From: an uncultured Acidimicrobiia bacterium
GTDB taxonomy: Bacteria; Actinomycetota; Acidimicrobiia; IMCC26256; JAENVU01
Length of the DNA stretch: 64,000 nucleotides
Reading direction: 5' to 3'
Assembly: GCA_963770105.1 (NCBI GenBank)
Contig: CAVYOL010000006.1
Location: forward strand, 61,540 to 125,539
How positions within the stretch are numbered: position 1 is the first letter of the stretch; the number at the start of each line of letters is the position of its first letter. This document shows positions 1 to 64,000 of this stretch, piece by piece. The notes under the pieces were generated by a model. The model did no database searches. It saw nothing but the letters and a program-made list of their open reading frames with translations, and was not told the DNA's origin. A program made the position numbers and the translations under genes.

Positions 1-782
1 ACCAGGGCGCGGCGGTAGAGCGCGTCGAGGGTGGCCTCGTCGACCCGGCCCAGGCGACGGACCGCGGGGCCGTCGAGTCCCGGCACGGAGAGCCACCCGG
101 TGGGTCCGGCGAGCACGAGGGTGAGGTCCGGATGGGTGCGCCGGATGCTCGCGACCGCGGCGGCGAGCGTGTCGAGGCCCTTGCGCGGCTCGATGGTGCC
201 GACACTGAGCACGTAGGGAGCTTCGATGCCCGCGGCGGCGAGGCGCGCGTCCCGCTCGTCGTCGGGCGCCGGCGTCGGGACGACGATGGCCATCGGCGCG
301 ACGAGCACGCGCTCGGGCTCGAACCCCGAGAGGATCAGCTCACCGCGCGTGAACTCGGAGATCGCGATGACGACCGACGCTTCGCGGTGCGCGACCGCGA
401 GGCCACGGCGGTGGAAGTCGACCCCACGGCGCGTGAACACCTCGGGGTGCCGGAGGAACGCGAGATCGTGGATCGTGACGACGAGCGGGGTGTCGTGTGC
501 CGGCGGCACCGCGAGGCTCGGCGCATGGATGACGTCGCTCGGCACCGGGATCGCGGGCCGGCGGAACCGGTGCCACAGCTCGTAGCGCCACGGCGCGTGC
601 GGCCGGCCGAGGTCGACGTAGCCCGGCAGCGGGCCCGGATGATCGGGCGGCGGGGGGCCCGCGGCGAAGGTCACCAGCTCCACGCCGACGTCGGGCAGCG
701 TGCCGAGCAGACCGTCGACGTAACGCCCGATGCCACCCGGCACGGGCTGCAGGAGCTGGCCCACGTGCAGGGCGACCTTCAT
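1..782 (-). CDS. glycosyltransferase, GT4/GT-B fold (3' end runs off window start)
   Basis: Absent from the ORF track because no stop lies in the window. Manual reverse translation from the ATG at 782 gives MKVALHVGQLLQPVPGGIGRYV... and ...GIEAPYVLSVGTIEPRKGLDTLAAAV...LVLAGPTGW, typical of this family. ATGA start/stop overlap with the upstream GT at 779-782. Confidence 0.75.
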   Translation of the reverse strand, partial: MKVALHVGQLLQPVPGGIGRYVDGLLGTLPDVGVELVTFAAGPPPPDHPGPLPGYVDLGRPHAPWRYELWHRFRRPAIPVPSDVIHAPSLAVPPAHDTPLVVTIHDLAFLRHPEVFTRRGVDFHRRGLAVAHREASVVIAISEFTRGELILSGFEPERVLVAPMAIVVPTPAPDDERDARLAAAGIEAPYVLSVGTIEPRKGLDTLAAAVASIRRTHPDLTLVLAGPTGWLSVPGLDGPAVRRLGRVDEATLDALYRRAL

Positions 783-1852
783 GCGACCGCACGATAGAGC
801 CGGGCGAAGCGCTCGGCGGTCGCGGGCCACGTGTAGCGGGCCACCTGGACGTGGCCCCGCGCGACGAGCGCGGCGCGGGCGTCGGGGTCGGCAAGCAGGT
901 GGCTGAGCCCGCCGGCGAGCTCGTCGTCGTCGAGCGGGTCGACGAGCTGGGCTCCGTCACCGAGCACCTCCGGGAGCGATCCGGCCCGCGCCGCGAGCAC
1001 GGGCACTCCGGCGGCCATCGCTTCGAGCGGCGGGAGGCCGAAGCCCTCGTAGCGCGTGGGGTAGGCGAAGACGGTGGCGCCGGCCAGCAGGTCGCGCCGC
1101 TGGGCGTTGGTCACGTAGCCGAGCCGGACGATGCGGTCGCGGCTCGGTGAGGCGTCGACCGCCGCGTCGAAGCGGGCCTGGTCCCAGCCGTCGGGTCCGG
1201 CGACCACGAGGCGGACCTCGGGATCACCCGCCGCGACGGCCGTGAAGGCGCGCACGAGCGCGGGGAGGTTCTTGCGCGGCTCGACGGTTCCGAGCGCGAG
1301 CACGTAGCGCGCGCCACCCGCGAGCTGAGCTCCCAGGTCGGGTCGCCCACCGCTCACCGCGCCGAGCCCCCAGGGGATCGCGACGACCCGGTCGGGCGCG
1401 ACCCCGAACTCGGTGCGGATCTCGTCGGCGACGAACTCGCTGCCGGTCTGGACCGTTGCCCCGCGGCTGATCGCCCGCCGGATGAGCGTGCCGTAGCGGA
1501 GCGTGTCCGGCGTGCAGAGCTCGGGAAAGCGGATGAACGTGAGGTCGTGCACCGCGACGATCACCGACGCGCGCGCCGGTGGCGCGACGTAGTTGAGCGC
1601 GTGCACGACGTCGATCGGCCCGGTCCAGTGCTCCGCGCGCGGCCAGGTCGCGCCGCGGCTCCAGAGCTCCCGGACCGCGCGCGCCGGCAGCCGCGCGGTG
1701 GCGGCCCGCACCCCGGCCGGGAGGCTGCGGGCGAGGTCGTTGCGGCCGCGCCAGGTCAGCGCGTAGGCGACGGGACGGACGTCGTCACGGGCCGCAAGCG
1801 CAGTGATCAGGCCCTCGGTGACCTCGCCGATCCCGGTGCGCTGCCCCAGCAA
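779..1852 (-). CDS. glycosyltransferase family 4 (GT-B fold)
   Basis: 357-aa ORF. C-terminal EGFGLPPLEAMAAGVPVLAARAGSLPEV motif (EX7E-type) and VGTVEPRKNL are typical of retaining GT4 enzymes. Confidence 0.85.
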   Translation of the reverse strand: MLGQRTGIGEVTEGLITALAARDDVRPVAYALTWRGRNDLARSLPAGVRAATARLPARAVRELWSRGATWPRAEHWTGPIDVVHALNYVAPPARASVIVAVHDLTFIRFPELCTPDTLRYGTLIRRAISRGATVQTGSEFVADEIRTEFGVAPDRVVAIPWGLGAVSGGRPDLGAQLAGGARYVLALGTVEPRKNLPALVRAFTAVAAGDPEVRLVVAGPDGWDQARFDAAVDASPSRDRIVRLGYVTNAQRRDLLAGATVFAYPTRYEGFGLPPLEAMAAGVPVLAARAGSLPEVLGDGAQLVDPLDDDELAGGLSHLLADPDARAALVARGHVQVARYTWPATAERFARLYRAVA

Positions 1853-1897
1853 CGGCGTGCCGTCGAGGGCAACACGGACGGGGTCGATCCCGTGATC

Positions 1898-3309
1898 CTA
1901 GAACTCGAGCGGCTCGTGCTCGATCTGGGTGATGAGCGAATCGATGCTGTCGGGCACGCCGCGCTGCATGCGCTGGTACAGGCTCACCATCATCACCAGC
2001 GTCGCGACGATCGCGCCGGCGAGGAACCCGACCTCGACCCGCAGCTCGAGGTCCGAGATGAGGGCCGCACCGACGCAGAACGTGAGGACTCCGAGGAGCC
2101 ACGCCAGTGCCGCGCGGGCGTGGCCCTTCAGCGCCAGCAGCGCCTGGGCCACGGTCAGGGCGATGATGAACACGCCGCTACCGGCCGCGAGCAGTCCGAG
2201 ATCCGTGCTGGAGATCGTGAACGGCGGGAACAGGATCTTGCCGACCGGCACGCCGATCGTGAACGCCGCGATCGTCCCGATGATCGCGATCCCGATCACG
2301 ATCCAGAGGAGCTGCTTGAACCCGGCGCGGAAGTCGTCGTGACGGCCGGCCCCCGCGAGGCCCGCGAGCTTCGGCAGCAGCGTGCCCTGCACCGCTTGGA
2401 AGAGCAGTGGTGGGATCCGGGCGACGAAGAACGCCGACGTGAACGCGGCGACGGCCAGGGTGTCCGCGTGGCTCGTGCCCTTCAACAGGTTCACGCCGAG
2501 CAGCGACGAGTATCCGAGCAGCTGCATCAGCACCGAGCCGGCGAGGAGCCAGCCGAGCGCGTTGGACAGCTCGCTGTACGGCGCCGGGGGCCCGGGTTCG
2601 AGGAGCTTCTCGCGTCGGCGCAGCGACACCGCGACCGCGACGAACGGGGCGAGCGCCATGCACATGCCGTACGCGCCGGCGTTGTTCGACGCCGATCGCC
2701 AGGATCGACGAGTGCACCGATCAGTCGAACGATGCCCTCCGTGGCCAACATCTCACCGTAGGGACGAAAGCGCGCGTTGCCCGAGAGGGTGCCGCGCGTC
2801 GTGTGCAGGCAGTAGTAGCCGACGAGGCCGATCGCGAGGCTCGCCACCAGCAGCCAGTTCCCGTGGAACTGCCCGTTCACGTAGAGCGGCGAGGTGATGA
2901 GGACGAGCACGACCATCACCCCGGTGAGGATCGCCCCGAGGCGCGCGGCGCGCTGTACCAGCGGTCCGCCCCCGATGCCCTGGGCCTTGCGGTGGGCGAG
3001 CGCGCGGCCGACCTCCTGCTCCAGTGGCAGGAACAGGCCGGGGCCGGCGACGAAGATGAAGCCCCAGAACGCGCCGAAGGCCGAGTACTGCTGCGAGCTC
3101 AGGCCCTGGTTCGCAACGATGACGAAGACGTACGCGGTGATGGCCGCGACGATGAGACCGGCACTGACGGCGAAGGTTCCCTCGGGGACGGCGCCCCGGG
3201 CCTTCTCGATCAGCTTCCCCGAACGGTCACCCACGGCCGAGCTCCGTCCCCTTCGATCGCGAATCGATGTCGGCCCACCGATACCCCCCGGCGCCCCGAT
3301 CCCGGCCAA
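1898..3309 (-). pseudogene. polysaccharide flippase-like (MOP/Wzx-type) multi-TM protein, frame interrupted near 2680-2700
   Basis: ORFs 2527..3309 and 1898..2665 are the N- and C-halves of one protein. They are collinear with the intact paralog at 13988..15313 (shared LPxEQEVxRALAxR, GNxRFRPYG, PGPPAP, LELRVExGFL). The start may instead be the GTG at 3234. Confidence 0.7.
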
Positions 3310-3506: not shown

Positions 3507-3577
3507 GGGCCCGATGGTGTTGGATGGCCCCGGGTGCCGTGTGCGCACAATGACCGAGGCAGAGCTCCGACCCGAAG

Positions 3578-4976
3578 GTGGTGAGCACGGTGGCTGAGAG
3601 GTTCGACGTCGTCGTCCTGGGCGGCGGCCCCGGTGGCTACGCGGCCGCCCTGTACGGGGCCGCAGCCGGGCTTCGGATCGCCATGGTGGAAGAGACCCGG
3701 GTCGGAGGCACCTGCCTGCATCGGGGCTGTATACCCGCCAAGGAGCTGCTCCAGACCGCCGAGGTGCTCCGGACCGTCCGCACCGCGAAGGAGTTCGGGG
3801 TGGACGCCGGCCAGCCCACCCTGGACCTGTCCACCAGCCAGGCCCGCAAGCAGCAGGTCGTCGACCGGCTGACCAAGGGCCTCGAGTCGCTGTTGAAGGG
3901 CCGCAAGGTCACCGTGGTCCCGGGAACGGGGACGATCATCGACGCCGCGGCCCACCACATCCGCGTGTCGGACGGCTCCGAGCTGATGGGCGACGCGCTG
4001 ATCCTCGCGACGGGGTCACTCCCGCGCGAGCTGCCCGGCCTGCCCTTCGACGGCACCCAGGTCCTGTCCTCGGACCACTTCCTCGTGCTCGACGAGGTCC
4101 CGGCCCGCACCGCGATCATCGGCGGCGGCGCGATCGGCTGCGAGTTCGCCTCCTTCCTCGCCGACGTCGGCAGCGACGTGACGCTGCTCGAGGCGATGCC
4201 GGCGATCCTGCCCGGCGTGGACAAGCAGGCCGCGGACCAGGTCGTCGCGCGCGTTCAAGAAGCGCGGCATCAAGGTCGCCACCGGCGTCGCGATCGACGG
4301 GCTCGACCGTGCGCCCGCGCTCACGCTGCGCTATCGCGCCGGCGACCAGTCCGAGTCGGTCGAGGTCGACAAGGTCGTGGTGAGCGTCGGTCGGCGTCCC
4401 CGTTCCGAGGGCATCGGTCTCGAGACCTCCGGGGTCGACGTCGACGACCGCGGCTTCATCGTGGTCGACGACCACCAGCAGACGTCGGTGCCCGGCGTGT
4501 ACGCGGTGGGTGACGTGGTCGCGGGTCCCGCCCTCGCGCACGTCGGCTTCGCGGAGGCGATCATCTCGATCAAGACCATCCTCGGCGAGGACGTCGTCCC
4601 GCTCGATCACGACAAGGTGCCGTGGGGGATCTACTGCCACCCGGAGGTCGCGTTCAGCGGGCTCACCGAGGCGGCGGCCGTCGAGCGCGGCTACGACGTC
4701 GTCACGTCCGTCCACCGGTTCGCGGGCAACAGCCGCGCGGTGATCATGGGCGAGCCCGACGGGCTGGTGAAGATCGTCGCCGAGAAGGACGGTCCGCTGC
4801 TCGGCGTCCACATCGTGGGGCCGTGGGCGACCGAGCTGCTCGCCGAGGGGTACCTCGCGGTCAACTGGGAGGCGACCCCGGACGACCTCGGCGCGCTGAT
4901 CCATCCCCACCCGACCCTGAGCGAGCTGTTCGGCGAGTCCGCGCTCGCGCTCACGGGTCGATCCCTGCACGGCTGA
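3578..4976 (+). pseudogene. lpdA: dihydrolipoyl dehydrogenase (E3), one +1 frame interruption near 4250
   Basis: The N-half ORF 3578.. carries GGGPGGY (FAD) and the GGTCLHRGCIPAK redox disulfide. The C-half ORF ..4976 carries HPHPTLSE. Skipping one g in gtcgtcgcgcgcG-ttcaagaag restores ...VVAR-FKKRGIKVATG... Confidence 0.9.
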
Positions 4977-4989: not shown

Positions 4990-6353
4990 GTGGACATCAC
5001 GATGCCGCAGCTGGGCGAGACGGTCACCGAGGGGACGATCACCCGGTGGCTCAAGCAGGTCGGTGACCAGGTCGCGGTCGACGAGCCGTTGTTCGAGGTG
5101 TCCACGGACAAGGTGGACTCGGAGGTGCCCGCGGCCGCGTCCGGGGTGCTGACCGAGATCCTCGTCCCGGAAGGTGACACCGTCGAGGTCGGGGCCCGGC
5201 TCGCGGTCCTCGGTGACGCGGCCGAAGGTGCCGCCGCGCCCGCCGCGCCCGCTGCTCCCGCGCCCGCCCCGGAGCCGGAACCCGCGCCGGCTCCCGCTCC
5301 CGCCGCCGCGGCACCGCCTCCGCCTCCCGCGCCGCCGGCGGCCCCCGCGCCCCCGCCGCCGGCGCCGAGCGCACCACCGGCTCCGGCATCGGCACCCGCG
5401 CCGGCCGCGGACGCACCCGCCGATGGCAACGGTCGGGTGACCTCACCCGTCGTCCGGCGCCTGATCGCCGAGCGGGGACTCGACCCCGCGTCGATCACGG
5501 GCACCGGCGAGGGCGGTCGGATCACCCGCCGCGACGTCACCAACGCGGCGCCCGCGGCGCGCACCGCCCCGACGGCTCCGGCCCCGAGCGCGCCGGCCGG
5601 CCCGGCGCCCGAAGCGCCCGTCTCGCGGGCCGTCCGCCACGGCGACGAGGTGATCCCGTTCGACAACATCCGGCGCCGCACCGCGGACCACATGGTCAGC
5701 TCCAAGCGGACCAGCGCGCACGTCTACACGTCGGTGGAGGTGGACTTCGAGCGCGTCGAGCGGATCCGGCGTGCGAACCAGGCCGACTGGAAGCAGGAAG
5801 AGGGCTTCTCGCTCACGTACCTGCCGTTCATCGTGCGGGCGTTCTGCGACGCGGTGCGCGACTACCCGAACGTGAACGCGAGCGTCGACGGCGAGTCGCT
5901 CGTCGTGCACCACGACGTGCACCTCGGCGTCGCGGTCGACCTCGAGTTCCGGGGCCTGATCGCACCGGTGATCCGCGATGCCGACGGCAAGCGGCTGCGG
6001 CTCATCGCCCGCGAGATCCGCGATCTCGCGACCCGCGCGCGACCAAGCAGCTCGGTCCGGACGAGATCCTCGGGGGCACGTTCACGATCACGAACATGGG
6101 GCCGTTCGGCACGTTGATGACGCTGCCGATCATCAACCAGCCCCAGGTCGCGATCCTGGCCACGGACGGGATCAAGAAGCGGCCGGTCGTCGTCGAGGGT
6201 CCGGACGGCGACGACGCGATCGCGATCCACCCGGTCGGCGTGCTCGCACTGGCCTGGGACCACCGGGCGTTCGACGGCGCGTACGCCGCGTCCTTCCTGC
6301 ACGCGGTGCGCGAGATCCTCGAGACCCGCGACTGGGACGCCGAGCTCGCATGA
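4990..6353 (+). pseudogene. sucB: dihydrolipoamide acyltransferase (E2), one -1 frame interruption near 6040
   Basis: Lipoyl domain with STDKVDSE (lipoyl-Lys), a PSBD (SPVVRRLIAERGLD), and a catalytic C-terminus on ORF 6096..6353 (DHRAFDGA). The frame is lost in the gcgcgcg run after ...IRDLATRA. Confidence 0.9.
5230..5428 (+). repeat. Ala/Pro-rich low-complexity linker inside E2
   Basis: About 66 codons that are almost only A/P/E/S (APAAPAAPAPAPEPEPAPAPAPAAAAPPPPPAPPAAPAPPPPAPSAPPAPASAPAPAA), between the lipoyl domain and the PSBD. Confidence 0.8.
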
Positions 6354-7074
6354 GCGTGGGCCGGGCGCCCTTGCGGGTTCGCTGGCTCGGACGGGTCGAC
6401 TACCACGAGGCAGCCGATCTGCAGCGGGCGCTGCACGAGCACAGTGAGCAGGACCATCTGCTCCTGCTCGAGCACCCGCACACGTACACGCTCGGCACCC
6501 GCGGTGGACCCGGCGCACGTCCTCGTGCCACCGGCGAGCGTCGGGGCCGAGCTCGTGCACGCCGACCGCGGTGGCGACGTCACGTACCACGGGCCGGGCC
6601 AGCTCGTCGGCTACCCGATCGTCACGCTGCGCCCGTGGCGCGACGGCGCACCCGATGTCATCGCGCACGTCCGACGGCTCGAAGCCGCGCTGATCGACGC
6701 GCTGGCCGGGCTTCGGCATCGATGCCCATCGCGAGGACGGGTTCTCCGGCGTATGGGTCGGCGACGAGAAGATCGCCGCGATCGGCGTGAAGGTCGCGGC
6801 GATGCGCACCCGCCACGGGTTCGCGTTGAACGTCGACCCCGACCTCGGGATGTTCGACCACATCGTTCCGTGCGGGATCCGCGACCGGGGCGTGACCTCG
6901 ATGGCGAAGCTCCTCGGCGCGGACACACCACCGATGCGCGAGGTCGCTGACGCCGTCGCCGACGCGATGGCCGTGCGACTCGGATACCTCGCGGTCGAGC
7001 GTCAGGACGTGGCCTGGCAGCAGACCCCGGACGATCTCAGCGCGTTCTCGCGCGGCGAGGGGACCGGGGCGCCG
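6350..7074 (+). pseudogene. lipB: octanoyl/lipoyl transferase LipB, two +1 interruptions (near 6507 and 6712) and no stop before lipA
   Basis: ATGA overlap with the E2 stop. Three frame pieces read [33 protein letters not shown] / [26 protein letters not shown] / [27 protein letters not shown]...[19 protein letters not shown]. The end coordinate is set only by the inferred lipA start. Confidence 0.8.
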
Positions 7075-8007
7075 GTGCGCCTGCTCGGCCGGCTCGCGGC
7101 CGCGGGCGTGGAAGCGCCGGTGCCCGACCCGACGTTCCGGCGGCCGGACTGGATGAAGGTCAAGGCCGATCTCGGCCCGGGCTACCGCGAGACCCAGCGG
7201 CTCATGCGCGACCGCGGCCTGAACACGGTGTGCCAGGAGGCCGGCTGCCCGAACATCTTCGAGTGCTGGGCCGACCGCACGGCCACGTTCATGATCCTCG
7301 GTGAGCGGTGCACGCGGGCGTGCGGCTTCTGCCTCGTCGACACCCGCAAGCCGAACCCGCTCGACCTCGACGAGCCCGCGCGCGTGGCCGACGCCGTGGC
7401 GACGCTCGGGCTCGCGCACGCGGTCGTCACCAGCGTCGCCCGCGACGACCTGGACGACGGCGGTGCCTCCGGGTTCGTCGCGACGATCGGGGCGATCCGG
7501 CGCCGCACGCCGGCCACCACGATCGAGGTGCTGATCCCCGACTGCAAGGGCGAGCCGGCCGCGCTCGACGCGATCTTCGCGGCACGCCCCGACGTGTTGA
7601 ACCACAACCTCGAGACCGTCGCCCGGCTGCAGCGTGCCGCCCGACCGTCGGCGGCCTACGCGCGGTCGCTCGCGCTGCTGGGTCGTGCAAAGCAGGCCGG
7701 CCTCGTGACCAAGTCGGGCATCATCTTGGGCATGGGAGAGACGATCGAAGAGCTGCACGGTGCCCTGGTGGACCTCCGCGGGGTCGGCGTCGACCTGATC
7801 ACGCTCGGCCAGTACCTGCGGCCGTCGACCACGCACCTTCCCGTCGTGCGCTGGTGGACGCCGGCCGAGTTCGACGAGCTCGGCCGCTACGCGCGGTCGC
7901 TCGGATTCGCACACGTCGAGAGCGGCCCGCTCGTCCGGTCGAGCTACCACGCCCGGGCCGGGGCGGCCGCCGTGGCCGAGCCGACCGTGGCCGCAGGGGT
8001 CGTCTGA
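7075..8007 (+). CDS. lipA: lipoyl synthase (radical SAM)
   Basis: [13 protein letters not shown] and CTRACGFC cysteine clusters, with a length typical for LipA. The GTG start at 7075 is inferred. In the sequence as given, the frame is open upstream into lipB (ORF track 6787..8007). Confidence 0.85.
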
Positions 8008-9652: not shown

Positions 9653-10420
9653 GTGAGCCTCGATCTCGGCACGGTTCTCCTGCAGTGGGCGACGGGCGGG
9701 CTGCTGTTCTTCTGGTGGACGGCCCGTCGCGAGGTGGTCGGGATCGGGTACGGCTGGCTGCTGCGCGGCGTCTACGGCGTGATGGGGGGCGTGGCGGTCT
9801 GGCTCGAGATCCGCTCCGATCAATCGGGCGCCGGACACGTCATCGCGATCGTCGGTGGGATCGGTCTGGTGCTGGCAACGCTCGTGGCGTTCGCGATCAG
9901 CTGGTTCCGGCGCGCCGCCGACGACCGCGGGCCGCAGCTGCTGGACGTAGTCGCGCCGGTGTTCGGCTTCATCGGTCTGCTCGGCCTGGCCGCGGTCGCG
10001 GGCGGCGGGTACGGGCTCGCGCTGCTCCGGCTGCTCAGCGGCGCGGTGTTCCTGGGCGCGATCACCGACGCGATGCTGCTCGGGCACTGGTACCTGGTGC
10101 AGCCCGGGCTCGCGCGTGCTCCGCTGCAGGAGCTGGTGACGCTGTGCCTCTACGTCTGGCCGATCGAGATCGTCGCGCTGCTCCTGCCACCCGGGATGAT
10201 CGGCGTGCTGAGCGGCTCGGTCTCGGACGGGTACGGCGGGCTGCTCGGCTGGATGTGGGTCGTCTCGGCGCTCACGACGATCGGGCTCGTCTGGGTGACG
10301 CGGCTCGCGCTGCGCGAGCAGTACTACTCGGCGGTCATGGCCGCGACGGGTCTGCTCTACCTCGCGATCCTCACCGCGTTCGGCACCGACGTCGTCGCGC
10401 GCGCACTGCTGGCCCCGTAG
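9653..10420 (+). CDS. integral membrane protein, unknown function
   Basis: 255-aa ORF (GTG start) with about 7 hydrophobic segments. No motif recognised. Confidence 0.6.
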   Translation: MSLDLGTVLLQWATGGLLFFWWTARREVVGIGYGWLLRGVYGVMGGVAVWLEIRSDQSGAGHVIAIVGGIGLVLATLVAFAISWFRRAADDRGPQLLDVVAPVFGFIGLLGLAAVAGGGYGLALLRLLSGAVFLGAITDAMLLGHWYLVQPGLARAPLQELVTLCLYVWPIEIVALLLPPGMIGVLSGSVSDGYGGLLGWMWVVSALTTIGLVWVTRLALREQYYSAVMAATGLLYLAILTAFGTDVVARALLAP

Positions 10421-10426
10421 CGCGGG

Positions 10427-13901
<3,475 letters not shown>

Positions 13902-15392: not shown

Positions 15393-16543
<1,151 letters not shown>

Positions 16544-18195
16544 ACGACCCGCGGCACTGACCCGCGCGCACCGCCGGCGCACGCGCCGGCGGTACCTCGT
16601 CGGCTGCATCTCCGTCCTGCTGGTCGCGCTCTTCCTGCGCGTCTACGCGCTCGGCTCCCAGAGCTTCTGGATCGACGAGATCAGCGTCACGTCCTTCGTG
16701 CGCTCCGGGCACCTGCTGTCGGACCTGCGCGACCGCGGGGGGCCGTTCGAGCCGCCCCTCCACTACCTGACGGTCCTCGCGGCCCTGCACCTCCCGTTCG
16801 GGTTCGAGACCGCGGCGCGCATCCCGTCGGTGATCTTCGGCACGATCGAGGTCCTCGCGCTCATCCTGCTGACCCGCGAGGCGACGACCCGGCGCAGCAC
16901 TGCGCTGGTGGCCGGGCTCCTGCTCGCGGTCGCGCCGTTCGCGGTCCGCTACAGCCAGGAGAACCGCTACTACGTGATGTTCTCCGCGCTCGTGCTGCTG
17001 TCGTGGTGGTTGCTGCTGCGGGGGTTCCGGCTGGGGACGCTCGGGAACTGGGTCTGGTACGGCGTCGTGGCCGCGCTCATGCAGCTCACGCATCCGTTCG
17101 CGCCGCTCGTCCTGCTGCTCGAGGCCCTGGTGGTCGGGGTGATGCTGTGGCGGGAGCGGGGAACCCCGAAGCCCAAGGTGCTGCGGCGCGGCTACGGGCT
17201 CGCGATCGTCGTCGGGCTCGTGCTGATCCTGCCCTGGTACGTGTACGGCGCGCTCGAAGTGGATCCCCAACGCGCTCGACGGGAAGTCGTACGCACTGAA
17301 CCCGTCCGGTCAGTTCGCGGTGCCGCTCGACACCGACCTCTTCAAGCGCGGGCGCCGAGTGGCTCCTCGGGAACGCGCAGGACATCACGGTCCTCGTCGT
17401 GATCCTGGTGGTGCTCGTGGTCGCGGCGCCGTTCCTGGCCCGCGGCCGCGAGCGAGTGGTCGCCGCGTCGACGCTCGCGTACGTGTTCGTCTTCGTGCTG
17501 GTGCTCGTCCCGCTCGCCCGCGCGCTCGGGACCTACTTCGCCTACCGGCGCATCGAGTCGTTGGTCGCGCCGATGCTGCTCCTCGTCGCGGTGGCGCTCG
17601 TGGCCGGCGTCTATCGCCTGTTCGCGATGCACCTGGACCGCAACGTCGCACTGGGCGTCGGCGCGGTCGCGGTGATCGTGGTCACCGGGCTCGCGCTCTC
17701 GGCGACGATCTCGTACTACGGCACCGACAAGACGAACTACCGGGCCTTCGCCCGCGCCGTGCGCGACGCGCCGCCCGGCCAGAGCGTCGTCGTCGGCTCC
17801 TCCACCCGCCGGGCCGCCGGGCTGATCCGGGACTACCTCCACTGGAAGGGTGTCAATCGGCCCGTGACGTTCCTGGTGCCGGGGAGCAAGCCGTTGAGCG
17901 GCCCGGTGCCGGCGGACGGCGTGCTGTGGCTCACGGGCGCGCCACCGAACCGGACCGACATGACCACCACACCCTTGAACGACCTCGCGAAGATGCAGGT
18001 GATCGCGGGGGACCGTTCGGGTCTGCTGATCGTGCTGCCGTGGTTCGCGTCGACGTCGCACCCGACCTCGGCCGCCGAGCTCGAGACCCAGCGACAAGCC
18101 ATCGCCCATCTGCCGCCGTTCCTTCCCGCGCCGTGACGCGACGGAGCGGGGATGAGGGTGGTTCGGGAAGGGTGGCCGGTAGGCTGCCCGGCGTT

Positions 18196-20010: not shown

Positions 20011-20055
20011 TGATCCCAGCACCGGCGTGACCCGGCGGCGGGCGTTGGTCTCCGG

Positions 20056-21978: not shown

Positions 21979-21996
21979 GCTCGGGCCGGCGCCGGG

Positions 21997-25395: not shown

Positions 25396-25467
25396 TGCCG
25401 AGCGGGTACCGGCGGAGCGGGCACCACTCGCCGGGTTCCGGGCCTCCGGCCGTAGACTCCGACGCAC

Positions 25468-26031: not shown

Positions 26032-26058
26032 ACCCACCCACTCCCTCCGGAGGCTTCC

Positions 26059-36255: not shown

Positions 36256-37482
36256 GCACGACCGCGGCTCCGGATCGCCGGGCGGTCGAGATCGTCGAGC
36301 GCGACGTGCGCGAGCTCCTCGCGCGCCGGGAGATCGCGATCGACCACGACCCGGGGCTCACGCGCCTCGTCGACGAGGTCGTCGTCGACTACCGGGATCG
36401 CTACCTCTCCGGTGGGCTCCCGCCCCTCACCGACGAGGACGTCGAGCTGCTGCACCACCGGATCGGCGGGTTCGGCGCGTTGACCCGGCTGCTCGAGGAT
36501 CCTGAGGTCGAGGAGATCTGGATCAACGAACCGGGCCGCGTCTTCGTGGCCCGGCGGGGCGAGCACGAGCTGACGACGGTGGTGTTGAGCCCCTCGGAGG
36601 TCGAGGAGCTGGTCGAGCGGATGCTGGCGCGCGGGTCGGCGCCTCGATCGGTCGCAGCCCTTCGTCGACGCCCGGCTGCCCGAAGGCAGCCGGCTCCACG
36701 TCGTCATCCCCCCGATCACCGACCACTGGGCGATCAACATCCGGAAGTTCGTCGGGCTCCGGGCCGAGTCGCTCGACGAGCTGGTGGCCCTCGGGTCGTG
36801 CTCGAGGCCGGCTGCGGCGTTCCTCGACGCGGCCGTGCGCGCCGGGCTCTCGATCGTCGTGGCCGGTGCGGTCGGCGCGGGGAAGACGACCCTGTTGAGC
36901 TGCCTGGCCTCGGCGATCCCGGCGCGCGAGCGGATCGTGACGTGCGAAGAGGTCTTCGAGCTGCGGATCGCGCGGCCCGACGTCGTTTCGATGCAGTGCC
37001 GGCAGACGAACCTCGAGGGCGAAGGCGCGGTGACCCTGCGGGATCTCGTGCGCGAGAGCCTCCGCATGCGGCCGGACCGCATCGTGGTCGGCGAGGTGCG
37101 CGGCGCGGAGACGCTGGACATGTTGCTCGCACTCAACAGCGGTGCCGCCGGGATGACCTCGGTCCACGCCAACTCCGCGCGCGAGGCCCTCAGGAAGCTG
37201 ACGACGCTCCCCCTGCTGGCCGGGGAGAACCTCGACCGACGGTTCGTCGCGGCGACGGTGGCCGCCTGCGTGGACCTGGTGGTGTTCTGCCGTCGGGCTG
37301 ACGGCGCGCGAGCGATCACCGAGATCCTCGCGGTCTCCTCGCAGGTCGGTGACGGGGACGAACCGACGACCGGAACCGTCTTCGAAGGTGCCGGCGAGAC
37401 GCTCCGTTGGACGGGGGAGATGCCCGGAGGACTCGAACGCTTCGCCGAACGGGGCATCGACCTGGTGACGGTGCTCCGGTGA
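36252..37482 (+). pseudogene. tadA: TadA/CpaF secretion ATPase, one +1 interruption near 36632
   Basis: The N-part is on ORF 36108.. (..EVEEIWINEPGRVFVARRGE..). The rest is on the frame of ORF 36784..37482 (RLPEGSRLHVVIPP, Walker A GAVGAGKTTLL, IVVGEVRG, TSVHANSA). The TTG start overlaps the tadZ stop. Confidence 0.88.
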
Positions 37483-40269: not shown

Positions 40270-40685
40270 CGAGCCGGTCCCCTGAGTCCGGCCAGGCCTC
40301 GGTCGTCATCGTCGGGGCGCTGGTGATCTGCCTCGCGTTCACTGGGCTGGCCGTCGACGGTGCGCGCCTGTTCACGGCCCGCCGCGACCTGCAGAACGTC
40401 GCCGACTCCGCCGCGCTCGCGGGCGCGTCCGCGGTCGACGAGGGCCAATTCCGGGCCACGGCCGGGAGCGAGGTCCGGCTGGACCCGACCGCGGCGCGGG
40501 TGGCGGCCGATCGCGTGTTGCGAGAGTCCGGTCTGCCGGCCACGACCCAGGTCGATGTGACGGTCGAACCGGACCGCGTCGTCGTGCACATCCGGCGACC
40601 GGTCGAGATGACGTTCCTGCGCATCGCGGGTCTGCGCACGGAGGACATCGGCGCGTCCGCGACCGCCGGTCCGCAGACCGGCTGA
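40266..40685 (+). CDS. TadG-/Rv3654c-family TadE-like protein
   Basis: 139-aa ORF with ATGA overlap: ..GQASVVIVGALVICLAFTGLAVDGARLFTARRDLQNVADSAALAGA.. matches the Tad_N-type N-terminus. Confidence 0.7.
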   Translation: MTSRSPESGQASVVIVGALVICLAFTGLAVDGARLFTARRDLQNVADSAALAGASAVDEGQFRATAGSEVRLDPTAARVAADRVLRESGLPATTQVDVTVEPDRVVVHIRRPVEMTFLRIAGLRTEDIGASATAGPQTG

Positions 40686-44914: not shown

Positions 44915-46506
44915 ATGGACGAGACGCCGCGCCAGACGGACTCGGGGATCGAGATCAAGCCGCTGTACACGGCCGAGGATCTCGCCCGGTTCGACCCCGA
45001 GACCCGGCTCGGTCGGCCGGGGAAGCCGCCGTACACGCGCGGCATCTACGAGCAGATGTACCGGACCCGCCCGTGGACGATGCGCCAGTACTCCGGCTTC
45101 GGCAGCGCCGCGGAGACGAACGAGCGCTTCCACTTCCTCCTCGGCGCCGGCCAGACCGGCCTGAGCGTGCGCCTTCGACCTGCCCACCCAGATGGGCTAC
45201 GACTCGGACCATCCCCGCTCCGAGGGCGAGGTCGGCAAGGTCGGCGTGGCGATCGACTCGCTCGAGGACATGGAGCTCCTGCTCGCACGGGCTCCCGCTC
45301 GACACCGTCACCACGTCGATGACGATCAACTCGACGGCCGCGGTCCTGCTCTGCCTCTACGAGCTCGTCGCCGAGAGGCCAGGGCGTGTCGAGCCGGACA
45401 AGATCGGCGGCACGATCCAGAACGACCTGCTCAAGGAGTACGTCGCCGCGCGGCACGTACATCTACCCGCCGCGTCAGTCGATGCGGATCATCACCGACA
45501 TCTTCGCCTACTGCGGCGAGCACGTTCCCGGTGGAACACGATCTCGATCTCCGGCTACCACATCCGCGAGGCGGGCAGCACCGCGGTGCAGGAGATCGCG
45601 TTCACGTTGAGCAACGGCGATCGCGTACGTGCAGGCCGCGGTCGACACCGGGCTCGACGTCGACGACTTCGCGCCCCGCCTCTCCTTCTTCTGGAACGGG
45701 CACAACGACTTCTTCGAGGAGATCGCGAAGTTCCGGGCGTCACGGCGCATGTGGTACCGGATCATGAGCGAGCGCTTCGGCGCGCAGAAGGAGAAGTCGA
45801 AGCTCCTGCGCTTCCACACGCAGACCGCGGGCTCGATGCTCACCGCGCAGCAGCCCGAGAACAACATCGTGCGCGTCGCGCTGCAGGCGATGGCGGCGGT
45901 GCTGGGCGGGACGCAGAGCCTGCACACCAACGGGTTCGACGAGGCGCTCGGGACTGCCGACGGAACGGGCGGCGACGATCGCGCTGCGGACCCAGCAGAT
46001 CATCGCGTTCGAGTCCGGCGTCACCGGCACCCCGGACCCGCTCGCGGGCTCGTACTTCGTGGAGTCGCTCACCGACGAGGTCGAGGCCGGCGCCTGGAAG
46101 TACATCGAGAAGATCGACGAGATGGGCGGGGCGGTCGCGGCGATCGAGGCCGGCTACATGCAGGACGAGATCGAGCGGGCGGCCTTCGAGTGGGCGACCG
46201 CGGTCGACGCCGAGAAGAAGGTCATCGTCGGGCTCAACCGCTACGCCGACCGACACCGACGTGGAGCCCGACGTCTTCCCGATCGACCCGCAGCTGGAGC
46301 GGGACCAGACCGAGCGGCTGCAGGCGCTGCGGGCCAAGCGTGACGACGCCGCGGTGAAGGCCGCGCTCGAGGAGCTGCGCGCCGCGGCGCACGGGACCCA
46401 GAACCTGCTGCCGCCCATGAAGGAGGCGCTGCGCCGCTACGCCACGCTGGGCGAGGTCAGCGACGTACTACGCGACGAGTTCGGGGTCTACCAACCCGCT
46501 CGGTAG
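44915..46506 (+). pseudogene. methylmalonyl-CoA mutase catalytic (large, N-terminal) subunit, ~7 frame interruptions
   Basis: Pieces across all three frames: [25 protein letters not shown] / [23 protein letters not shown] / [15 protein letters not shown] / [16 protein letters not shown] / [15 protein letters not shown] / [26 protein letters not shown] / [10 protein letters not shown]... It ends before any B12-binding domain. Confidence 0.85.
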
Positions 46507-51940: not shown

Positions 51941-52000
51941 ATCAACAGTCCGCGCTGACTTCGAAGTTCGAGCCGCGCGCGTTCATATACTACGAACCTC

Positions 52001-55693
<3,693 letters not shown>

Positions 55694-55694
<1 letters not shown>

Positions 55695-56117
55695 TGGCGC
55701 CGACCTGGGACGACCTCGACGTCGGTGCTGCGCCGGCGCCGCGCACCGTCGGGCCACTGAACCGCACCGACTTCGTCCGCTACCAGGGCGCGTCGGGTGA
55801 CTTCAACCCGATCCATCACGACGAGGAGTTCGCGCAGTCGGCCGGGTACCCGTCCGTGTTCTCGGTCGGCATGCTCCAGGCCGGCATCCTCGCGAGCTAC
55901 GCCACCGACTGGCTCGGCGCGGACAACGTCCGCAGCTTCGGCGTGCAGTTCCGTGAGCAGGTGTGGCCGGGCGACCAGCTCGTCTGCTCGGGCACGGTCG
56001 TCGAGCGGTCGGACGCCGTGGACGGCGACGAGCGCACCGTGAAGCTCGAGCTCGTCGTCGACACGCGTCGGTGGTGGCACCGCGATCAAGGGCAGGGCCA
56101 CCTTCGCGGTCGCCTAG
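55694..56117 (+). pseudogene. MaoC-domain dehydratase subunit (HadB-like), one +1 interruption near 56068
   Basis: ..FVRYQGASGDFNPIHHDEEFA..GYPSVFSVGML.. is the hydratase motif. Skipping one base restores a ..GGGTAIKGRATFAVA-stop tail. Confidence 0.8.
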
Positions 56118-56584
56118 GACTTGGAGATGAACGACCAGCTGTAGGTGCCGTTGTCCCGAGCGCGGGTCGGCCTGCGAGCGGTACGTCGACCTTGACGGTG
56201 TTCGGGCCCGGTTCGTAGGCCTCGACGTCCTGGCCCGGCCCGGCTGGTAGGTGAGCTGACCCGAGCGCGGCGATGAACTCGACCTGGTCGGCCGGCAGCG
56301 GCGTGCAGGTGCCCGACGGTCCGCACAGCTGCAGGTCTCGCGGTCAGGTCGTCGCGCAGGTCCACGGTGATCTGCTCCTGCGGCGGCACGATCGTGCCCG
56401 GCTTCGGAGACACGGACTGCACCTGGCTGGGCAGGGTCGTGCGCCGGTCCTTGGTGTCCGCGCCCGAGATCGCGGCGGCCGCGAGGAGCACGACGAGGGT
56501 CATCCCGCCGGCGAAGACCGCGAACCGACCCGGGTGCTTGATCGCCTTGCGGCGGGGGGCCGGGAGCGCCTTCGGAGCAGTCAT
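56114..56584 (-). pseudogene. small membrane-anchored exported protein, several frame interruptions
   Basis: MTAPKALPAPRRKAIKHPGRFAVFAGGMTLVVLLAAAAISG.. (TM anchor). The ectodomain is readable only by switching frames at least 3 times (..DLQLCGPSGTCTPLPADQVEF.., ..DNGTYSWSFISKS-stop). Confidence 0.45.
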
Positions 56585-56672
56585 CGCGCTGCGGACGGTA
56601 CCGCCGCACGGCGGCCCCGGTTGCGCATCGGGTGCCCCGGCCAACGACATCCGGACCGGTACCGTGGATTCG

Positions 56673-58542
56673 ATGGCCAGCAGCACGATGGCCGACCTCA
56701 CCGGCCGAGTTCTCGCCGGCCGCTACCGCCTGCTCGGTTCGATCGGTGCAGGCGCGGGCGGTCGGGTGTACGTCGCCGACGACGTCCGGCTTCGCCGACG
56801 CGTCGCGGTCAAGGTCCTGCACGCCGGCCTTTCGGACGACATCGGGCTTTCTGCGGAGGTTCCGCACCGAAGCGCAGCTCGCGGCGTCGCTGCACCACCC
56901 GAACGTGATGGCCGTCTACGACTGGGGCGAGGACGACGGCGTCCCGTTCATGGTGCTCGAGCTCCTGGAGGGTGGCTCCCTGCGGGGGATGCTCGATGCC
57001 GGCATCCGGCTGACGCCGTCGCAGGCCACCCACGTCGGCCGCCAGGTCGCCGCCGCGCTCGAGTACGCCCACGGGCGGGGCCTGGTCCACCGGGACATCA
57101 AGCCGGCCAACCTCCTCTTCGACGAGCACGGCATCGTGCGCGTCGCCGACTTCGGGCTGGCCCGCGCGCTCGCCGAAGCGAGCTGGACCGAGCCTGCGGG
57201 CACCGTCCTCGGCACCGCGCGGTACGCCTCGCCCGAGCAGGGCACGGCGGGCCGCCTCGACGGGCGCGCGGACCTGTACGCGCTCAGCCTCGTGCTCGTC
57301 GAGTCGGTCACCGGCAACGTCCCGCTCACCGCGGAGACGCCGCTCGGCACGTTGTCGATTCGCACGCGCGAGGCGATCACCGCCCCCGCGTCGCTGCGCG
57401 CGCGTTGGGTCCCGTGCTCGAGCGCGCGGGACAGGTGGACCCCGACGACCGGTACCCGGACGCGCCGACGATGGCCGCGGCGCTCGACGACGTCGCCCGG
57501 GTGCTGCCGCCACCGGGCCCGTTCACGCTCGTCGGTCTCGGCGAGACGGTCCCCGACCCGCACCCCACCCAGGTGGTGAGCCAGACCCGGGACGCGGTCT
57601 TCGACCAGGACGAGAGCAAGGCGAAGAAGCCGGTCATGGCGCCGACGCGCGCCGCCGCGGCGGATGCCGACCGGCCCCGGACCGTCGCGCCCTTCATCCT
57701 CGGCGCGGTGCTGATCATCGCGATCGCCGGCGCGGTGTTCGCGCTGACCCGGCCCCAGAACGGTGCGACCGTCACGGTCCCGAACCTCAAGGGCCTGACC
57801 GAGCAGACCGCACAGAACCAGGCCAACCGGTCCCGGCTGCTGGTCAGCTTCTCGCACAAGAACGCGGACGATCCCAAGGGCACGGTCATGGGCCAGCACC
57901 CCGACGCCGGCTTCTTCCTGGGCCGCGGCGGCACGGTGAACCTGGTCATCTCGAAGGGACCGAAGCCGGTGGCGCTCCCGGCGGTCGCGGGCATGCCCGC
58001 GCCGCAAGCCGAGGCCGCCCTCGCGCAGGCGCTGTTCGTGCCGGTGGTCCAGCACACGTTCGACGAGACGGTGCCCAAGGACGCAGTCGTCAGCACGAGC
58101 CCGGCGGGCAAGGCGCCGCCGGACTCCAAGGTGACGCTCGTCGTCTCCGACGGCCCCGCGCCGGTGACGGTCCCGAACGTGGCCAAGAAGAGCTACGACG
58201 GACGCGGCCGCGCAGATCCAGGCCGCCCGGCTCGTGCCCCAGCGCAGCGACCAGTACAGCGACACGGTGCCGTCCGGCCAGGTCATCGGCACGACCCCCG
58301 CGGCCGGCTCGAAGGCACCGCGGGACTCCGCGGTCACCATCATCGTGAGCAAGGGCACGGACGTGATCCTCGTCCCGAACGTGACCGGGAAGACGATCGA
58401 CGTGGCCACCGCGCTCGCCCAGGCGCAGGGCCTCACCGTCGCGGTCCAGGGCGTGTACACGCCGGGCAAGCCCGTGAAGTCGCAGTCGCCCGCGGCGGGG
58501 CTCCCGGACCGGCGCGGCCAGGTCCTCACGCTGATCTTCTAG
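56673..58542 (+). pseudogene. pknB: Ser/Thr protein kinase with four PASTA repeats (PknB-like), three frame interruptions (near 56850, 57395 and 58205)
   Basis: GAGAGGRVY, VAVKVL, HRDIKPANLLF, DFGLA and ASPEQ kinase motifs, then a TM (VAPFILGAVLIIAIAGAVFAL), then four PASTA-like units (VPNLKG.., LPAVAG.., VPNVAKK.., VPNVTGK..). Confidence 0.9.
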
Positions 58543-58669: not shown

Positions 58670-59565
58670 TTGACCAACATGGGTGCACTCGACGGCCGGG
58701 TTGCCATCATCACCGGCGCAGGACGCGGCCTCGGCCGCGAGCACGCGCTCCTCTTCGCGTCCGAGGGCGCCAAGGTGGTCGTGAACGACCTCGGCGGCGA
58801 CATCGACGGGACGGGTGACGACCGTGCGCCCGCGCAGCAGGTCGTCGACGAGATCAAGGCGATGGGCGGCGAGGCGGTCGCCAACGTCGACAACGTGGCC
58901 GACTGGGACGGTGCGCAGAAGCTCATCCAGACCGCGGTCGACACGTTCGGCGGGCTGCACGTGCTGGTCAACAACGCCGGCATCCTGCGGGACCGGGTCA
59001 TCGTGAACATGACCGAGACCGAGTGGGACTCCGTCATCCACGTCCACCTCAAGGGCCACTTCTGCCCGACCCGCTTCGCCGCCTCGTACTGGCGGGAGCA
59101 GAGCAAGGCCGGCAACCCCGGTCAAGGCGTCGATCATCCACACGTCGTCCACGTCCGGGCTGCTCGGCAACCCCGGGCCAGGCCAACTACGGCGCCGCGA
59201 AGAGTGGCATCGCCACGTTCTCCCAGATCTGCTCGATGGAGCTGAGCCGCTACGGCGTGCGCTCGAACGCGATCGCCCCGGCGGCGCGGACCCGGCTCAC
59301 GGAGCAGACGCCCGGCCTGAGCGAGGTCGTGAAGGTGCCCGAGAACGCCGCGACCTTCGACGCGTGGGACCCGGCGAACGTGTCGCCGTTCGTGGCGTAC
59401 CTCGCGACCGAGGACTGCGCCATCAGTGGTGAGGCGTTCCTCGTGCAGGGCGGGGTCGTGCAGCGCTTCGCGCCGTGGACGCTCTCCGAGAAGATCGACA
59501 AGGGCGACCGCTGGACCGTGGCCGAGCTGGCCGCCGAGGCGGACAAGCTGTCCCCGAAGAAGTAG
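58670..59565 (+). pseudogene. short-chain dehydrogenase/reductase, one -1 interruption near 59120
   Basis: TGAGRGLG cofactor motif and NNAG. The catalytic YGAAK is on the second frame piece (ORF 59023..59565). TTG start with the RBS GGGAG. Confidence 0.85.
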
Positions 59566-62230: not shown

Positions 62231-62312
62231 CACGCGAGCGTACCGATCGTCGACTCGCCCTCGGTGCCCGGAGGTTGTGGTCGCCCGACGCAGTAGCGGA
62301 GACTCTCTCGCC

Positions 62313-63642
62313 ATGGCCGACCTGCACTACGCCCGGGCCGACGGGCTCCACCTCGCGTACCGGGTGCATGACGGAGCCGGGGAGCGCGACGTCGTGGTGT
62401 TCACCCCGGGCGGCACGATTCCGATGGACGCGCTCGAGCAGGACCGGATCGGGGCCCGTTTGATCGCGGGACTGTCCGCGATCGGTCGCCTGCTGCTCTT
62501 CGACCGACGCGGGATCGGCCTGTCGGATCCGATCACCGACTGGCAACGCCCGCTGGTCGAGCAATGGGCGGACGACCTCGCCGCGGTCATCACCGAGGCG
62601 GCGCTCGAGCGGCCGGTGGTCGTGGCCCTCGGGGACTACTGGGGGCCGGCGCGGCTCTTTGCCGCCCGGCACCCGGGCCTGCTCAGTCGTCTGGTGCTGT
62701 ACGAGCCGCACGGTCCCGTCGAAGCCGTCGACCTTCGCAACGGAGTGCAGGCACGCATGGCGGAGGTCGGTGGCGCGGGCGACTGGATCGCGGTGGTCTG
62801 CCCGAGCCGTGCGCATGACGTGGCGTTCCACCAGTGGTTCGACAACGCGGGTCGTTCGGGTGCGAGCCCCGCGGTCGCGGCGCGGGTGTACGACCGACCC
62901 GACGGAGCCATCATCGAAGCGTTGCGCGACGCCGAGCGGAGCATCGAGGTGCCGACGCTCGTGCTGCGACGGCCCGAGAACCTCCTCGGGTCTCCCGCAC
63001 CACCCGATCCCGTGGCGGAATCGATCACGGACTGCCGCAGCGTCGCACTCTCCGGGCGCGACTATCACTGGCTCGGTGAGGACGTGGACTCCCTGCTGGC
63101 CGAGATCTCACGCTTCGTCACGGGCGAGTCCCGGCTCCCGGCACCCGAGCGCGTGCTCTGCGCGGTCCTGTTCACGGATCTGGTGGGCTCGACCGAGCGC
63201 CTCAGCACGGTCGGCGACGCGCGGTGGAAGGTGGTCCTGGATCGTCACGACGCGGTCATCCGCGAGGAAGTCGGCCGCAGCGGTGGCACCGTGCTCAAGC
63301 ACACCGGCGATGGGGTCCTGGCCACGCTGCCCTCCGCGGATCGCGCACTGCGCACGGCCGCCGCGATCCGGACAGCGTCTGGGCCACGATGACCTGCAGG
63401 TGCGCATCGGGGTGCACATCGGTGACGTGGATCGACGAGGTGACGATCTCTCCGGCGTCGGCGTCCACCTGGCCGCGCGCGTCCTGGCACTGGCCGGAGC
63501 GGGCGAGATCCTGGTGACCGCGGCGGTCCCGCTTGCAGTTACCGGCTCGGCCTGCGAGTTCCAATCGCGCGGTCTCCACCAGCTCAAGGGGGTCGCGGGC
63601 GAGTGGGAGCTGTTCGAGTACGTGCACGGAGACGCGCCGTAA
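62313..63642 (+). pseudogene. alpha/beta-hydrolase-fold domain fused to class III adenylate/guanylate cyclase, one +1 interruption near 63372
   Basis: N-domain ..LLLFDRRGIGLSD... Cyclase domain VLFTDLVGSTE..HTGDGVLATL.. continues on ORF 62659..63642 (..IGVHIGDVDRRGDDLSGVGVHLAARV..). Confidence 0.8.
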
Positions 63643-63682
63643 TTGGGACCCGGCGGTCGCCGTCGCGTGACAGGGTGCCGGC

Positions 63683-64000
63683 ATGCCTCCGTTGCTCGAT
63701 GCCCCGACGCTCGTCGGTGCGCGGGTGCGGCTCGAGCCGCTCTCGCTGCGCCACGTCGATGACCTGATCGTGGCGTCGGACGACGATCGGTCGACCTACG
63801 ACTACACCACGGTGCCCCACGGTCCCGACGAGGTGCGGCACTACGTGAGCACCCGGTTGGACGAAGCGGCGGCGGGGGAGTGGATGCCGTTCGCGCAGGT
63901 ACGGCTCCCGGACGACCGCGCGGTCGGTGTCACCAACTTCCTGACGTTTCGATGGGAACCGGGCGCCGATCTCCCGTACGCGGTCGAGATCGGCGGGACC
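63683..64000 (+). CDS. GNAT N-acetyltransferase (RimJ/RimL-like), 3' end beyond window
   Basis: From the ATG at 63683: MPPLLDAPTLVGARVRLEPLSLRHVDDL...FAQVRLPDDRAVGVTNF... The frame is open to the window end. Confidence 0.65.
   Translation, partial: MPPLLDAPTLVGARVRLEPLSLRHVDDLIVASDDDRSTYDYTTVPHGPDEVRHYVSTRLDEAAAGEWMPFAQVRLPDDRAVGVTNFLTFRWEPGADLPYAVEIGGT

Follow-up and report, generated by a model that had tools for sequence, protein, structure and literature searches.

Draft assemblies built by Flye from Nanopore reads carry many more inserted than missing bases. In the Homopolish benchmarks the insertions and deletions of such drafts number 14,394 and 439 for P. aeruginosa, 18,718 and 5,039 for E. 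anophelis, and 177 and 2 for lambda, at a draft quality of Q22-26 (PMC8011154). The metagenome-assembled genomes (MAGs) of the long-read catalogue of Microflora Danica (MFD-LR) are Nanopore-only and were made with Flye (--meta --nano-hq) and one round of Medaka (PMC12313526), and, in work of the same group, Nanopore bins below ~40x still require short-read polishing (PMC9262707; Sereika et al. 2022). Here we analyze a stretch of 64,000 nucleotides (nt) from an uncultured Acidimicrobiia bacterium, referred to as the window (contig CAVYOL010000006.1, positions 61,540 to 125,539 of the forward strand; assembly GCA_963770105.1), in which 53 breaks of the reading frame interrupt 21 of ~58 protein genes.

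Pseudogenisation of the Mycobacterium leprae type is similar to the window in that many conserved genes carry frameshifts, but the window shows no stops, domain-scale deletions, relaxed selection or decay of codon bias, its essential genes are hit repeatedly, and the pattern tracks sequencing technology. With Flye drafts of Nanopore reads (PMC8011154) the window shares an excess of insertions (49:4), a quality of ~Q24 in its affected blocks, as compared to Q22-26, and frameshifts in conserved genes. The benchmarks, however, are whole unpolished R9.4 drafts, whereas the window is affected in blocks only, as if partly polished. Low-coverage Nanopore-only MAGs (PMC9262707, PMC12313526) likewise contain truncated and fragmented proteins, and the window has its closest relatives in the MFD-LR catalogue. 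The residual indels described in these papers lie mainly in long homopolymers and low-GC genomes, while the window has 71% GC and its events have no link to homopolymers.

Frame breaks and their direction

The GC content of the window is 69-73% along all 64 kb, and a GC3 (GC at third codon positions) of ~0.95 with a GC2 of ~0.5 gives the codon-position pattern of high-GC actinobacteria. For reference-free tracking of frames, a codon table was trained on 13 long unambiguous segments and the window was divided by Viterbi segmentation with seven states (six frames and non-coding), stop codons being forbidden. A same-strand frame change was scored as a gene boundary if the upstream frame has a stop at the junction and as a candidate break otherwise. 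There are ~38 same-strand frame changes without a stop at the junction, 30 of them +1 and 8 of them −1. They fall inside lpd, the E2 acyltransferase gene, lipB, metH, two epimerase genes, pepA, the Tad ATPase gene, the methylmalonyl-CoA mutase (MCM) gene, ligA, a hotdog dehydratase gene, pknB, a short-chain dehydrogenase (SDR) gene and others, and the translations of the segments show that the protein runs on in the next frame.

When one genome from each GTDB species was searched with the MoeZ-like protein of the window (29998-31158, minus strand), the only matches were MAGs of Acidimicrobiia/Actinomycetota, many of them with the MFDxxxxx.bin names of the MFD-LR catalogue. L001 (CAWCMX010000006.1, MFD05502.bin.2.24) matched best and runs colinear with positions 20000-39039 of the window at 94.1% nucleotide identity. 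In total we collected 165 related loci, comprising 80 GTDB species representatives, 80 JGI metagenomes around ligA, and 5 syntenic contigs (L161-L165) found around homologs of MetH and MnmA. L161 spans 2-24 kb of the window. L162, L163 and L164 are short-read scaffolds of one species that span 36-61 kb and encode intact MCM (527 aa), LigA (717 aa), PknB (617 aa) and SDR (294 aa).

Chaining of blastx high-scoring pairs on raw stop-to-stop open reading frames (ORFs) proved too noisy at 71% GC, where the ORFs of close relatives match off-frame and in antisense as well, and was therefore replaced by Viterbi-trimmed peptides and a purpose-written local protein-to-DNA aligner. The aligner uses dynamic programming with explicit +1, +2, −1 and −2 moves and was given a trial run on MCM. 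Each reference locus was Viterbi-segmented as well, and only in-frame peptides were used, to avoid off-frame matches. The run comprised 777 peptide-to-window alignments with trimmed peptides from 135 related loci. An event was called strong if it had the support of 2 or more loci and of no less than 60% of those that span its position, and single-reference if it was seen against one close relative with clean flanks. These results apply to coding sequence with a reference: ~12 kb of the window has none (positions 1-2020, 59.6-63.1 kb and a number of short gaps), and codon and protein methods are blind to non-coding indels.

We identified 41 strong events (35 of +1, 2 of +2, 3 of −1 and 1 of −2) and 12 single-reference events (2687, 2706, 15795, 16231, 17350, 33188, 58197, 45376/45399, 54481/54500 and 63390). 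Together these 53 events comprise 45 of +1, 4 of +2, 3 of −1 and 1 of −2. Insertions outnumber deletions 37:4 among the strong events (binomial p = 1e-7) and 49:4 over all events. Several of the Viterbi −1 junctions correspond to two nearby +1 events, e.g. 2687/2706 and 59117/59172. Support was unanimous at, for example, metH 10916 (25/25 loci), pepA 27379 (58/58), MCM 45950 (39/39) and ligA 53475 (24/24). None of the peptide-to-window alignments contains an in-frame stop codon, residues are identical on both sides of the breaks, and nucleotide alignments to L162 and L001 display single extra bases. Deleting or adding one or two bases gives back an uninterrupted protein of ortholog length. The frame breaks are real, and the reference-free and reference-based methods agree on them.

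An earlier note, made by eye from the letters of the window, had reported interruptions in 29 of 62 genes, with ~40 of ~48 events in the +1 direction. The interruptions and their bias to +1 hold (45/53), and the number of genes comes down to the 21 of ~58 documented here, with a few more possible in the ~12 kb that has no reference. All eight genes that it named (lpd, E2, lipB, metH, pepA, tadA, ligA and pknB) are interrupted, E2 by a −1 event and tadA by a 2-nt deletion. Its statements that premature stops are absent and that the protein continues in an adjacent frame are borne out by the alignments, and the protein-to-genome alignment that it proposed as a check lists the events with their signs and confirms the breaks. 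Three of its four example bases, the extra G at 4251, the extra C at 10917 and the extra G at 27379, were recovered. For the fourth, an extra G at 15805, there is a +1 event nearby, but the nearest one is at 15795 and the base is C.

Related assemblies, sequence context and gene integrity

The window and L001 are separated by 65 gaps over the 19 kb that they share; most are 1 nt long, and they occur in either direction. To decide which sequence shifts frame at each gap, we determined the best-scoring codon frame for every interval in turn. The window shifts frame at 24392, 27378 and 33188, where L001 is continuous, and the window in turn is continuous at ~22 insertion and 5-7 deletion sites at which L001 shifts frame; the extra bases of L001 include those at 20805, 21420, 21792, 22229-22413, 26554 and 31633. 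At each window site the orthologs are uninterrupted in the 2-58 loci that span it. The extra bases are private to the window assembly. One clear low-complexity site occurs among the events, the (GC)4 repeat at 36627 (36620-36635, GGCGCGCGCGGG in relatives), from which the window lacks 2 nt and L001 lacks 1 nt, while 8 other loci have it at full length. On this comparison the repeat looks like a systematic hard site, miscalled in both of these closely related assemblies, unlike the otherwise random insertions. In tadB and tadC (37.3-39.0 kb) the window and L001 differ by short compensated indel pairs, most of which frame scoring gives to L001. These pairs are partly resolved, and the indels at 37551 and 37586 were left out of the event count.

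The identical frameshift pipeline was run on 19 other loci. In the Nanopore MFD-LR contigs L001, L011, L013 and L165 the density is 12-22 events per 10 kb, mostly +1, and in the Nanopore MFD-LR loci L002, L004, L006, L007 and L161 it is 1.6-3.5 events per 10 kb. Pooled, the nine Nanopore loci gave 85 events of +1, 8 of +2, 13 of −1 and 4 of −2. Nine short-read assemblies gave the background of the method, 0-2 events each (0-1.5 per 10 kb). The same +1-biased class of error is present in the Nanopore relatives and absent from the short-read ones. The stretch from ligA to pknB is dense in errors in L165 as it is in the window, though at different individual sites. A scan of JGI metagenomes for a near-identical, accurately sequenced copy found a best LigA match of 78% identity and hence no same-strain control in the collections covered. 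Counted per ~20-kb locus, L001, L011, L013 and L165 (ERZ25039539 contig_50139) contain 20-27 frameshift events; the first three are GTDB species representatives in the one-genome-per-species collection, and in L165 the gene calls of NifS, LigA and PknB are split.

The events are clustered, with a variance-to-mean ratio of 4.4 in 2-kb bins for the strong events (p = 5e-14). Thirty-one of the 41 strong events fall in two blocks, 7 in 44.9-46.3 kb and 24 in 52.4-59.2 kb, and long stretches elsewhere are free of events. The indel density of the 52.4-59.2 kb block is ~0.35%, or ~Q24 locally. Homopolymers are not associated with the events: the longest run within ±3 nt averages 2.19, as compared to a background of 2.28 (p = 0.63). 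Within ±10 nt of the events, neither the window nor four further Nanopore loci show specific enrichment of any k-mer (k = 3-5), and pooling them gave a mild excess of GC-rich words and nothing more. The idea of a methylation-type or other motif at the insertion sites was dropped for lack of such an enrichment. The inserted bases are 26% A+T (9/34), compared to 29% in bulk sequence and ~5% at third codon positions. By our own count they extend an identical neighbor in ~10/34 cases, where ~50% is expected; for the insertions of L001 the figure is 9/22, near chance.

In dN/dS the interrupted genes, once corrected, are like their intact neighbors. The earlier note had suggested a comparison of dN/dS; measured by the Nei-Gojobori method against L162, L161 and L001, it is 0.09-0.39 for frame-corrected broken genes and 0.05-0.44 for intact neighbors. 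The genes are still under purifying selection. GC3 is 0.93-0.99 in every segment downstream of a shift, and the lengths of the corrected proteins are close to those of their orthologs (LigA 713 vs 717, MCM 523 vs 527, PknB 621 vs 617). The marks of pseudogenes in reductive evolution were not found: there are no in-frame stops, these proteins are at most 4 residues off ortholog length, and dN/dS and GC3 are normal. The adenylation, OB, HHH_2 and BRCT domains are all complete in corrected LigA; in the frame as deposited, the adenylation domain is split and HHH_2 and BRCT are missing. Corrected MCM matches PF01642 in a single stretch (1-512/512), corrected PknB has the Pkinase domain and 4 PASTA domains, corrected LipB-LipA has complete Pfam domains, and the stitched cyclase of the hydrolase-cyclase gene matches PF00211 (10-174/183) across the junction. 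Frameshifts in high-GC DNA make ORFs longer rather than shorter, so that quality checks based on length can miss it. The uncorrected metH ORF is an example; it runs through from 10371 to 13901 on the minus strand (P0242, 1176 aa) and lacks PF02965. The last ~180 residues of P0242 are out-of-frame read-through, and the chimera clusters with genuine MetH in public protein collections. An MnmA protein 100% identical to that of the window (P0121) is also on record, and it shares with P0242 a single contig of 147,924 bp in NCBI and ENA.

Origin of the extra bases

We estimate a probability of about 93% that the frame breaks are uncorrected, insertion-type errors of the assembly consensus and not features of the DNA of the organism, judging from the sequence comparisons. 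Sequencing or assembly error was also preferred over pseudogenisation in the earlier note, and privacy to one assembly, the technology control, the absence of nonsense mutations and the unchanged dN/dS all favor it. By analogy with its relatives, the platform and pipeline of the window are most likely of the Nanopore-only type with Flye and one round of Medaka. The contig, a 147.9-kb piece of an uncultured Acidimicrobiia genome of 71% GC, would then come from a Nanopore-only metagenome assembly, whose Flye draft consensus would be dominated by spurious single-base insertions. Medaka puts draft sequence into stretches that it is unable to polish. Sequence of draft quality would survive in places with thin read support or ineffective polishing, with one stray base per 150-300 bp in the surviving blocks, while well-supported stretches would be clean; we infer that the error-dense blocks are such low-coverage or unpolished stretches. 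Each stray base would move the frame by +1 and lead gene callers to truncated or out-of-frame run-through proteins.

Several points weigh against consensus error. The insertions have no association with homopolymers and are thus atypical of classical Nanopore indel errors, and they fit the Flye-draft explanation only by analogy with benchmarks of the R9.4 era. The platform of the window contig is taken from its relatives, and the call of an artefact depends on comparison among assemblies and not on read support at each site. The ligA-to-pknB block is error-dense in the unrelated Nanopore contig L165 too, which could hint at a sequence-dependent component. A different artefact, in which co-existing strains were collapsed and the consensus or polisher emitted both alleles of a single-nucleotide polymorphism (SNP) as a one-base insertion, would make the dense blocks strain-variable regions and not ones of low coverage. 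Soil metagenomes are rich in strains (PMC12313526), the events are clumped in blocks, and the inserted bases extend an identical neighbor less often than by chance, as a model of alternative alleles predicts. The insertions of L001, however, do so at a rate near chance, and the A+T content of the inserted bases is near that of bulk sequence and far from that of third codon positions, where most strain SNPs are expected. Allele doubling at third positions is such a poor fit to this composition that we kept it only as a minor rival; strain collapse seems unlikely as the principal cause and is possible as a contributor.

The other rivals place the extra bases in the organism or deny them, and we consider all of these far less probable than strain collapse. 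Very recent, massive pseudogenisation, as in the reductive evolution of Mycobacterium leprae, would account for the many genes affected, some repeatedly, and the absence of any particular base from the DNA cannot be proved by sequence alone. Such decay is nevertheless very improbable, as 53 indels come with zero nonsense mutations and no domain-scale deletions, LigA, MCM and PknB are near ortholog length, dN/dS equals that of intact genes, and codon bias is intact past every shift. Nine indels acquired by one gene (MCM) through real decay should be accompanied by nonsense and missense changes, and none are seen; the essential, single-copy ligA would have taken 10-11 events; and unrelated species show the same pattern only where they are Nanopore-assembled. 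An insertion:deletion ratio of 49:4 would not be expected of spontaneous bacterial indels. Less probable still is a misreading of continuous ORFs by the earlier note or by our alignments. At 71% GC long ORFs are open in several frames and easily confused by eye, but the two methods concur, single extra bases are visible in nucleotide alignments, Pfam domains are split in the uncorrected frames and whole in the corrected ones, and the identical pipeline gives 0-2 events in short-read assemblies; the frameshift-aware, nucleotide, domain and short-read evidence together rule it out. The least probable reading of all is recoding, with the frame restored by RNA editing, transcriptional slippage or programmed ribosomal frameshifting. 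As with genuine programmed frameshifts, every downstream segment does run on without fault in the adjacent frame, but there is no common slippery sequence or motif and no homopolymer link, no site is conserved in orthologs (2-58 uninterrupted loci), a single gene has up to 11 events, and +2, −1 and −2 types are among them. The lack of a common motif and of conservation in orthologs excludes programmed frameshifting. Extra bases that are present in the DNA of the living population, in genes kept functional by deletion editing of transcripts or by a site-independent +1 ribosomal bypass, would explain intact selection and codon bias, and we regard this as no more probable than a misreading.

Uncorrected consensus error belongs to a familiar general class of artefact, that of frameshifts in long-read MAGs, and has an insertion-biased, non-homopolymer, block-wise signature and no biological novelty. 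About one third of the deposited gene calls of the contig would be wrong, and its proteins should not be taken at face value. The same error mode occurs in related public Nanopore MAG contigs, some of them GTDB species representatives. Such errors will bias MAG-based completeness estimates, inferences on pangenomes and gene loss, protein-family databases and counts of "pseudogenes". High-GC lineages may suffer especially, because out-of-frame ORFs stay open and checks of coding density are blind to the shift. Homology-guided, frameshift-aware correction recovers the proteins, and the signature is worth flagging to users of these long-read MAGs; the artefact bears on annotation and on public protein databases.

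Affected genes along the window and their neighbors

The Wzx-like flippase gene (1901-3222, minus strand) has +1 events at 2687 and 2706 (Viterbi 2703), seen against L161 only (85% aa identity) with clean flanks. In the plus-strand genes that follow, lpd, encoding dihydrolipoyl dehydrogenase (3569-4973), has an extra G within 4245..4250, supported by 2/2 spanning loci (GTC GTC [G] CGC; Viterbi 4249), and the E2 acyltransferase gene (4990-6347) lacks one base at 6041..6042 (4/4 loci). The lipB part of the lipB-lipA ORF has +1 events at 6503 (6 loci; Viterbi 6500) and 6711 (6/9 loci; Viterbi 6707). Correction joins lipB (octanoyltransferase, PF21948) to lipA (radical SAM lipoyl synthase) in a single plus-strand ORF of 544 aa (6348-8004) with no stop between them. 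LipB-LipA is also a single in-frame segment in L161 (578 aa), L079, L044, L062 and L066, among them short-read MAGs, while lipB is separate in L064, L076 and L080; this pattern suggests that LipB-LipA is probably a genuine fusion in part of the Acidimicrobiia.

In metH (minus strand) the extra base at 10916, a C on the gene strand (CTG [C] CGG), was found with 25/25 loci and cuts off the C-terminal activation domain. The plus-strand gene for an NAD-dependent epimerase/dehydratase (15468-16535) has +1 events at 15795 (GCG [C] CCG; Viterbi 15794) and 16231 (Viterbi 16233), both against L161 (92% aa identity), with clean flanks at the former. In the adjoining membrane glycosyltransferase-like gene (16536-18121, plus strand) there is a +1 event at 17350 against L161 (65% aa identity; Viterbi 17347) and a further candidate at ~17256, from codon composition in the Viterbi segmentation (17256). 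The second epimerase gene (18235-19137, plus strand) has a +1 event at 18874 (3 loci; Viterbi 18871).

Within the region shared with L001, an extra G at 24393 interrupts the gene of a large secreted/membrane protein (24000-25455, minus strand), as supported by 4/5 loci including L001 (97% aa identity), which lacks the base. L001 also lacks the extra G at 27379 (CTC [G] ACC) of pepA, encoding leucyl aminopeptidase (26092-27541, plus strand), for which 58/58 loci agree. At the 5' end of pepA, 26049 is a weak candidate of ambiguous type (+1 or −2), with 2 loci, neither of them spanning the site fully. Directly after pepA, at 27542-29157 on the plus strand, lies the gene of a ~530-aa secreted protein with a cupredoxin-like, copper-binding segment and a region resembling NosD/right-handed beta-helix proteins. 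This gene shares its frame with the out-of-frame tail of pepA, giving a mechanical ORF of 1,033 aa (26059-29160). In the gene of a LysM-domain membrane protein (32810-33485, minus strand) there is an extra T at 33188, against L001 (95% aa identity), which keeps its frame there.

The plus strand at 34262-40682 carries a complete Tad/Flp pilus cluster, with synteny to both L162 and L001. It encodes a CpaB-like protein, a CpaE-like ATPase, CpaF/TadA, TadB, TadC, a 40-58 aa Flp-like pilin (39290-39463) and three TadE/TadG-like pseudopilins. The 2-nt deletion in the gene of the pilus ATPase TadA/CpaF (36246-37476, plus strand) lies in the (GC)4 repeat at 36627..36630 and was found with 7/8 loci.

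The MCM gene (44915-46491, plus strand) has nine events in all: +1 at 45167, 45285, 45376, 45448, 45619, 45950 and 46251, +2 at 45399 and −1 at 45531. Each is supported by 15-39 loci, except 45376 and 45399 (L162/L163 only). In the second dense block, a gene for a conserved 335-aa protein (51994-53013, plus strand) has +1 events at 52442 (5/9 loci) and 52713 (8/8). It is followed by ligA (53076-55230, plus strand) with 10-11 events: +1 at 53475, 53578, 53786, 54500, 54615, 54716, 54789 and 54921, +2 at 54481 and −1 at ~54872, with 7-24 loci each. The gene of the FAS1_DH-like hotdog dehydratase (55233-55690, plus strand) has +1 events at 55335, 55402, 55415 and 55574 and a +2 event at 55513, with 4-6 loci each, unanimous among those that span the position, and the MaoC dehydratase gene (55691-56111, plus strand) has a +1 event near its 3' end, at 56061 (6/6 loci). 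A minus-strand gene for a 158-aa protein has +1 events at 56162, 56187 and 56338, against the one species of L162, L163 and L164. In pknB, which encodes the Ser/Thr kinase with 4 PASTA domains (56571-58539, plus strand), there are +1 events at 56627, 56841 and 58197 and a +2 event at 57398, with 3-8 loci, except 58197 (L162 only), and in the SDR gene (58673-59562, plus strand) there are +1 events at 59117 and 59172 (3/3 loci).

Near the right end of the window (62268-63640, plus strand), one gene encodes an N-terminal region resembling alpha/beta-hydrolases in fusion with a class III adenylate/guanylate cyclase domain. A +1 event at 63385..63392 was found in the cyclase domain with one distant reference, L088 (44% aa identity). 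The Viterbi segmentation labelled the frameshifted tail of the cyclase (63372-63670) as antisense coding, an instance of how frame calls from composition only can fail after a shift.

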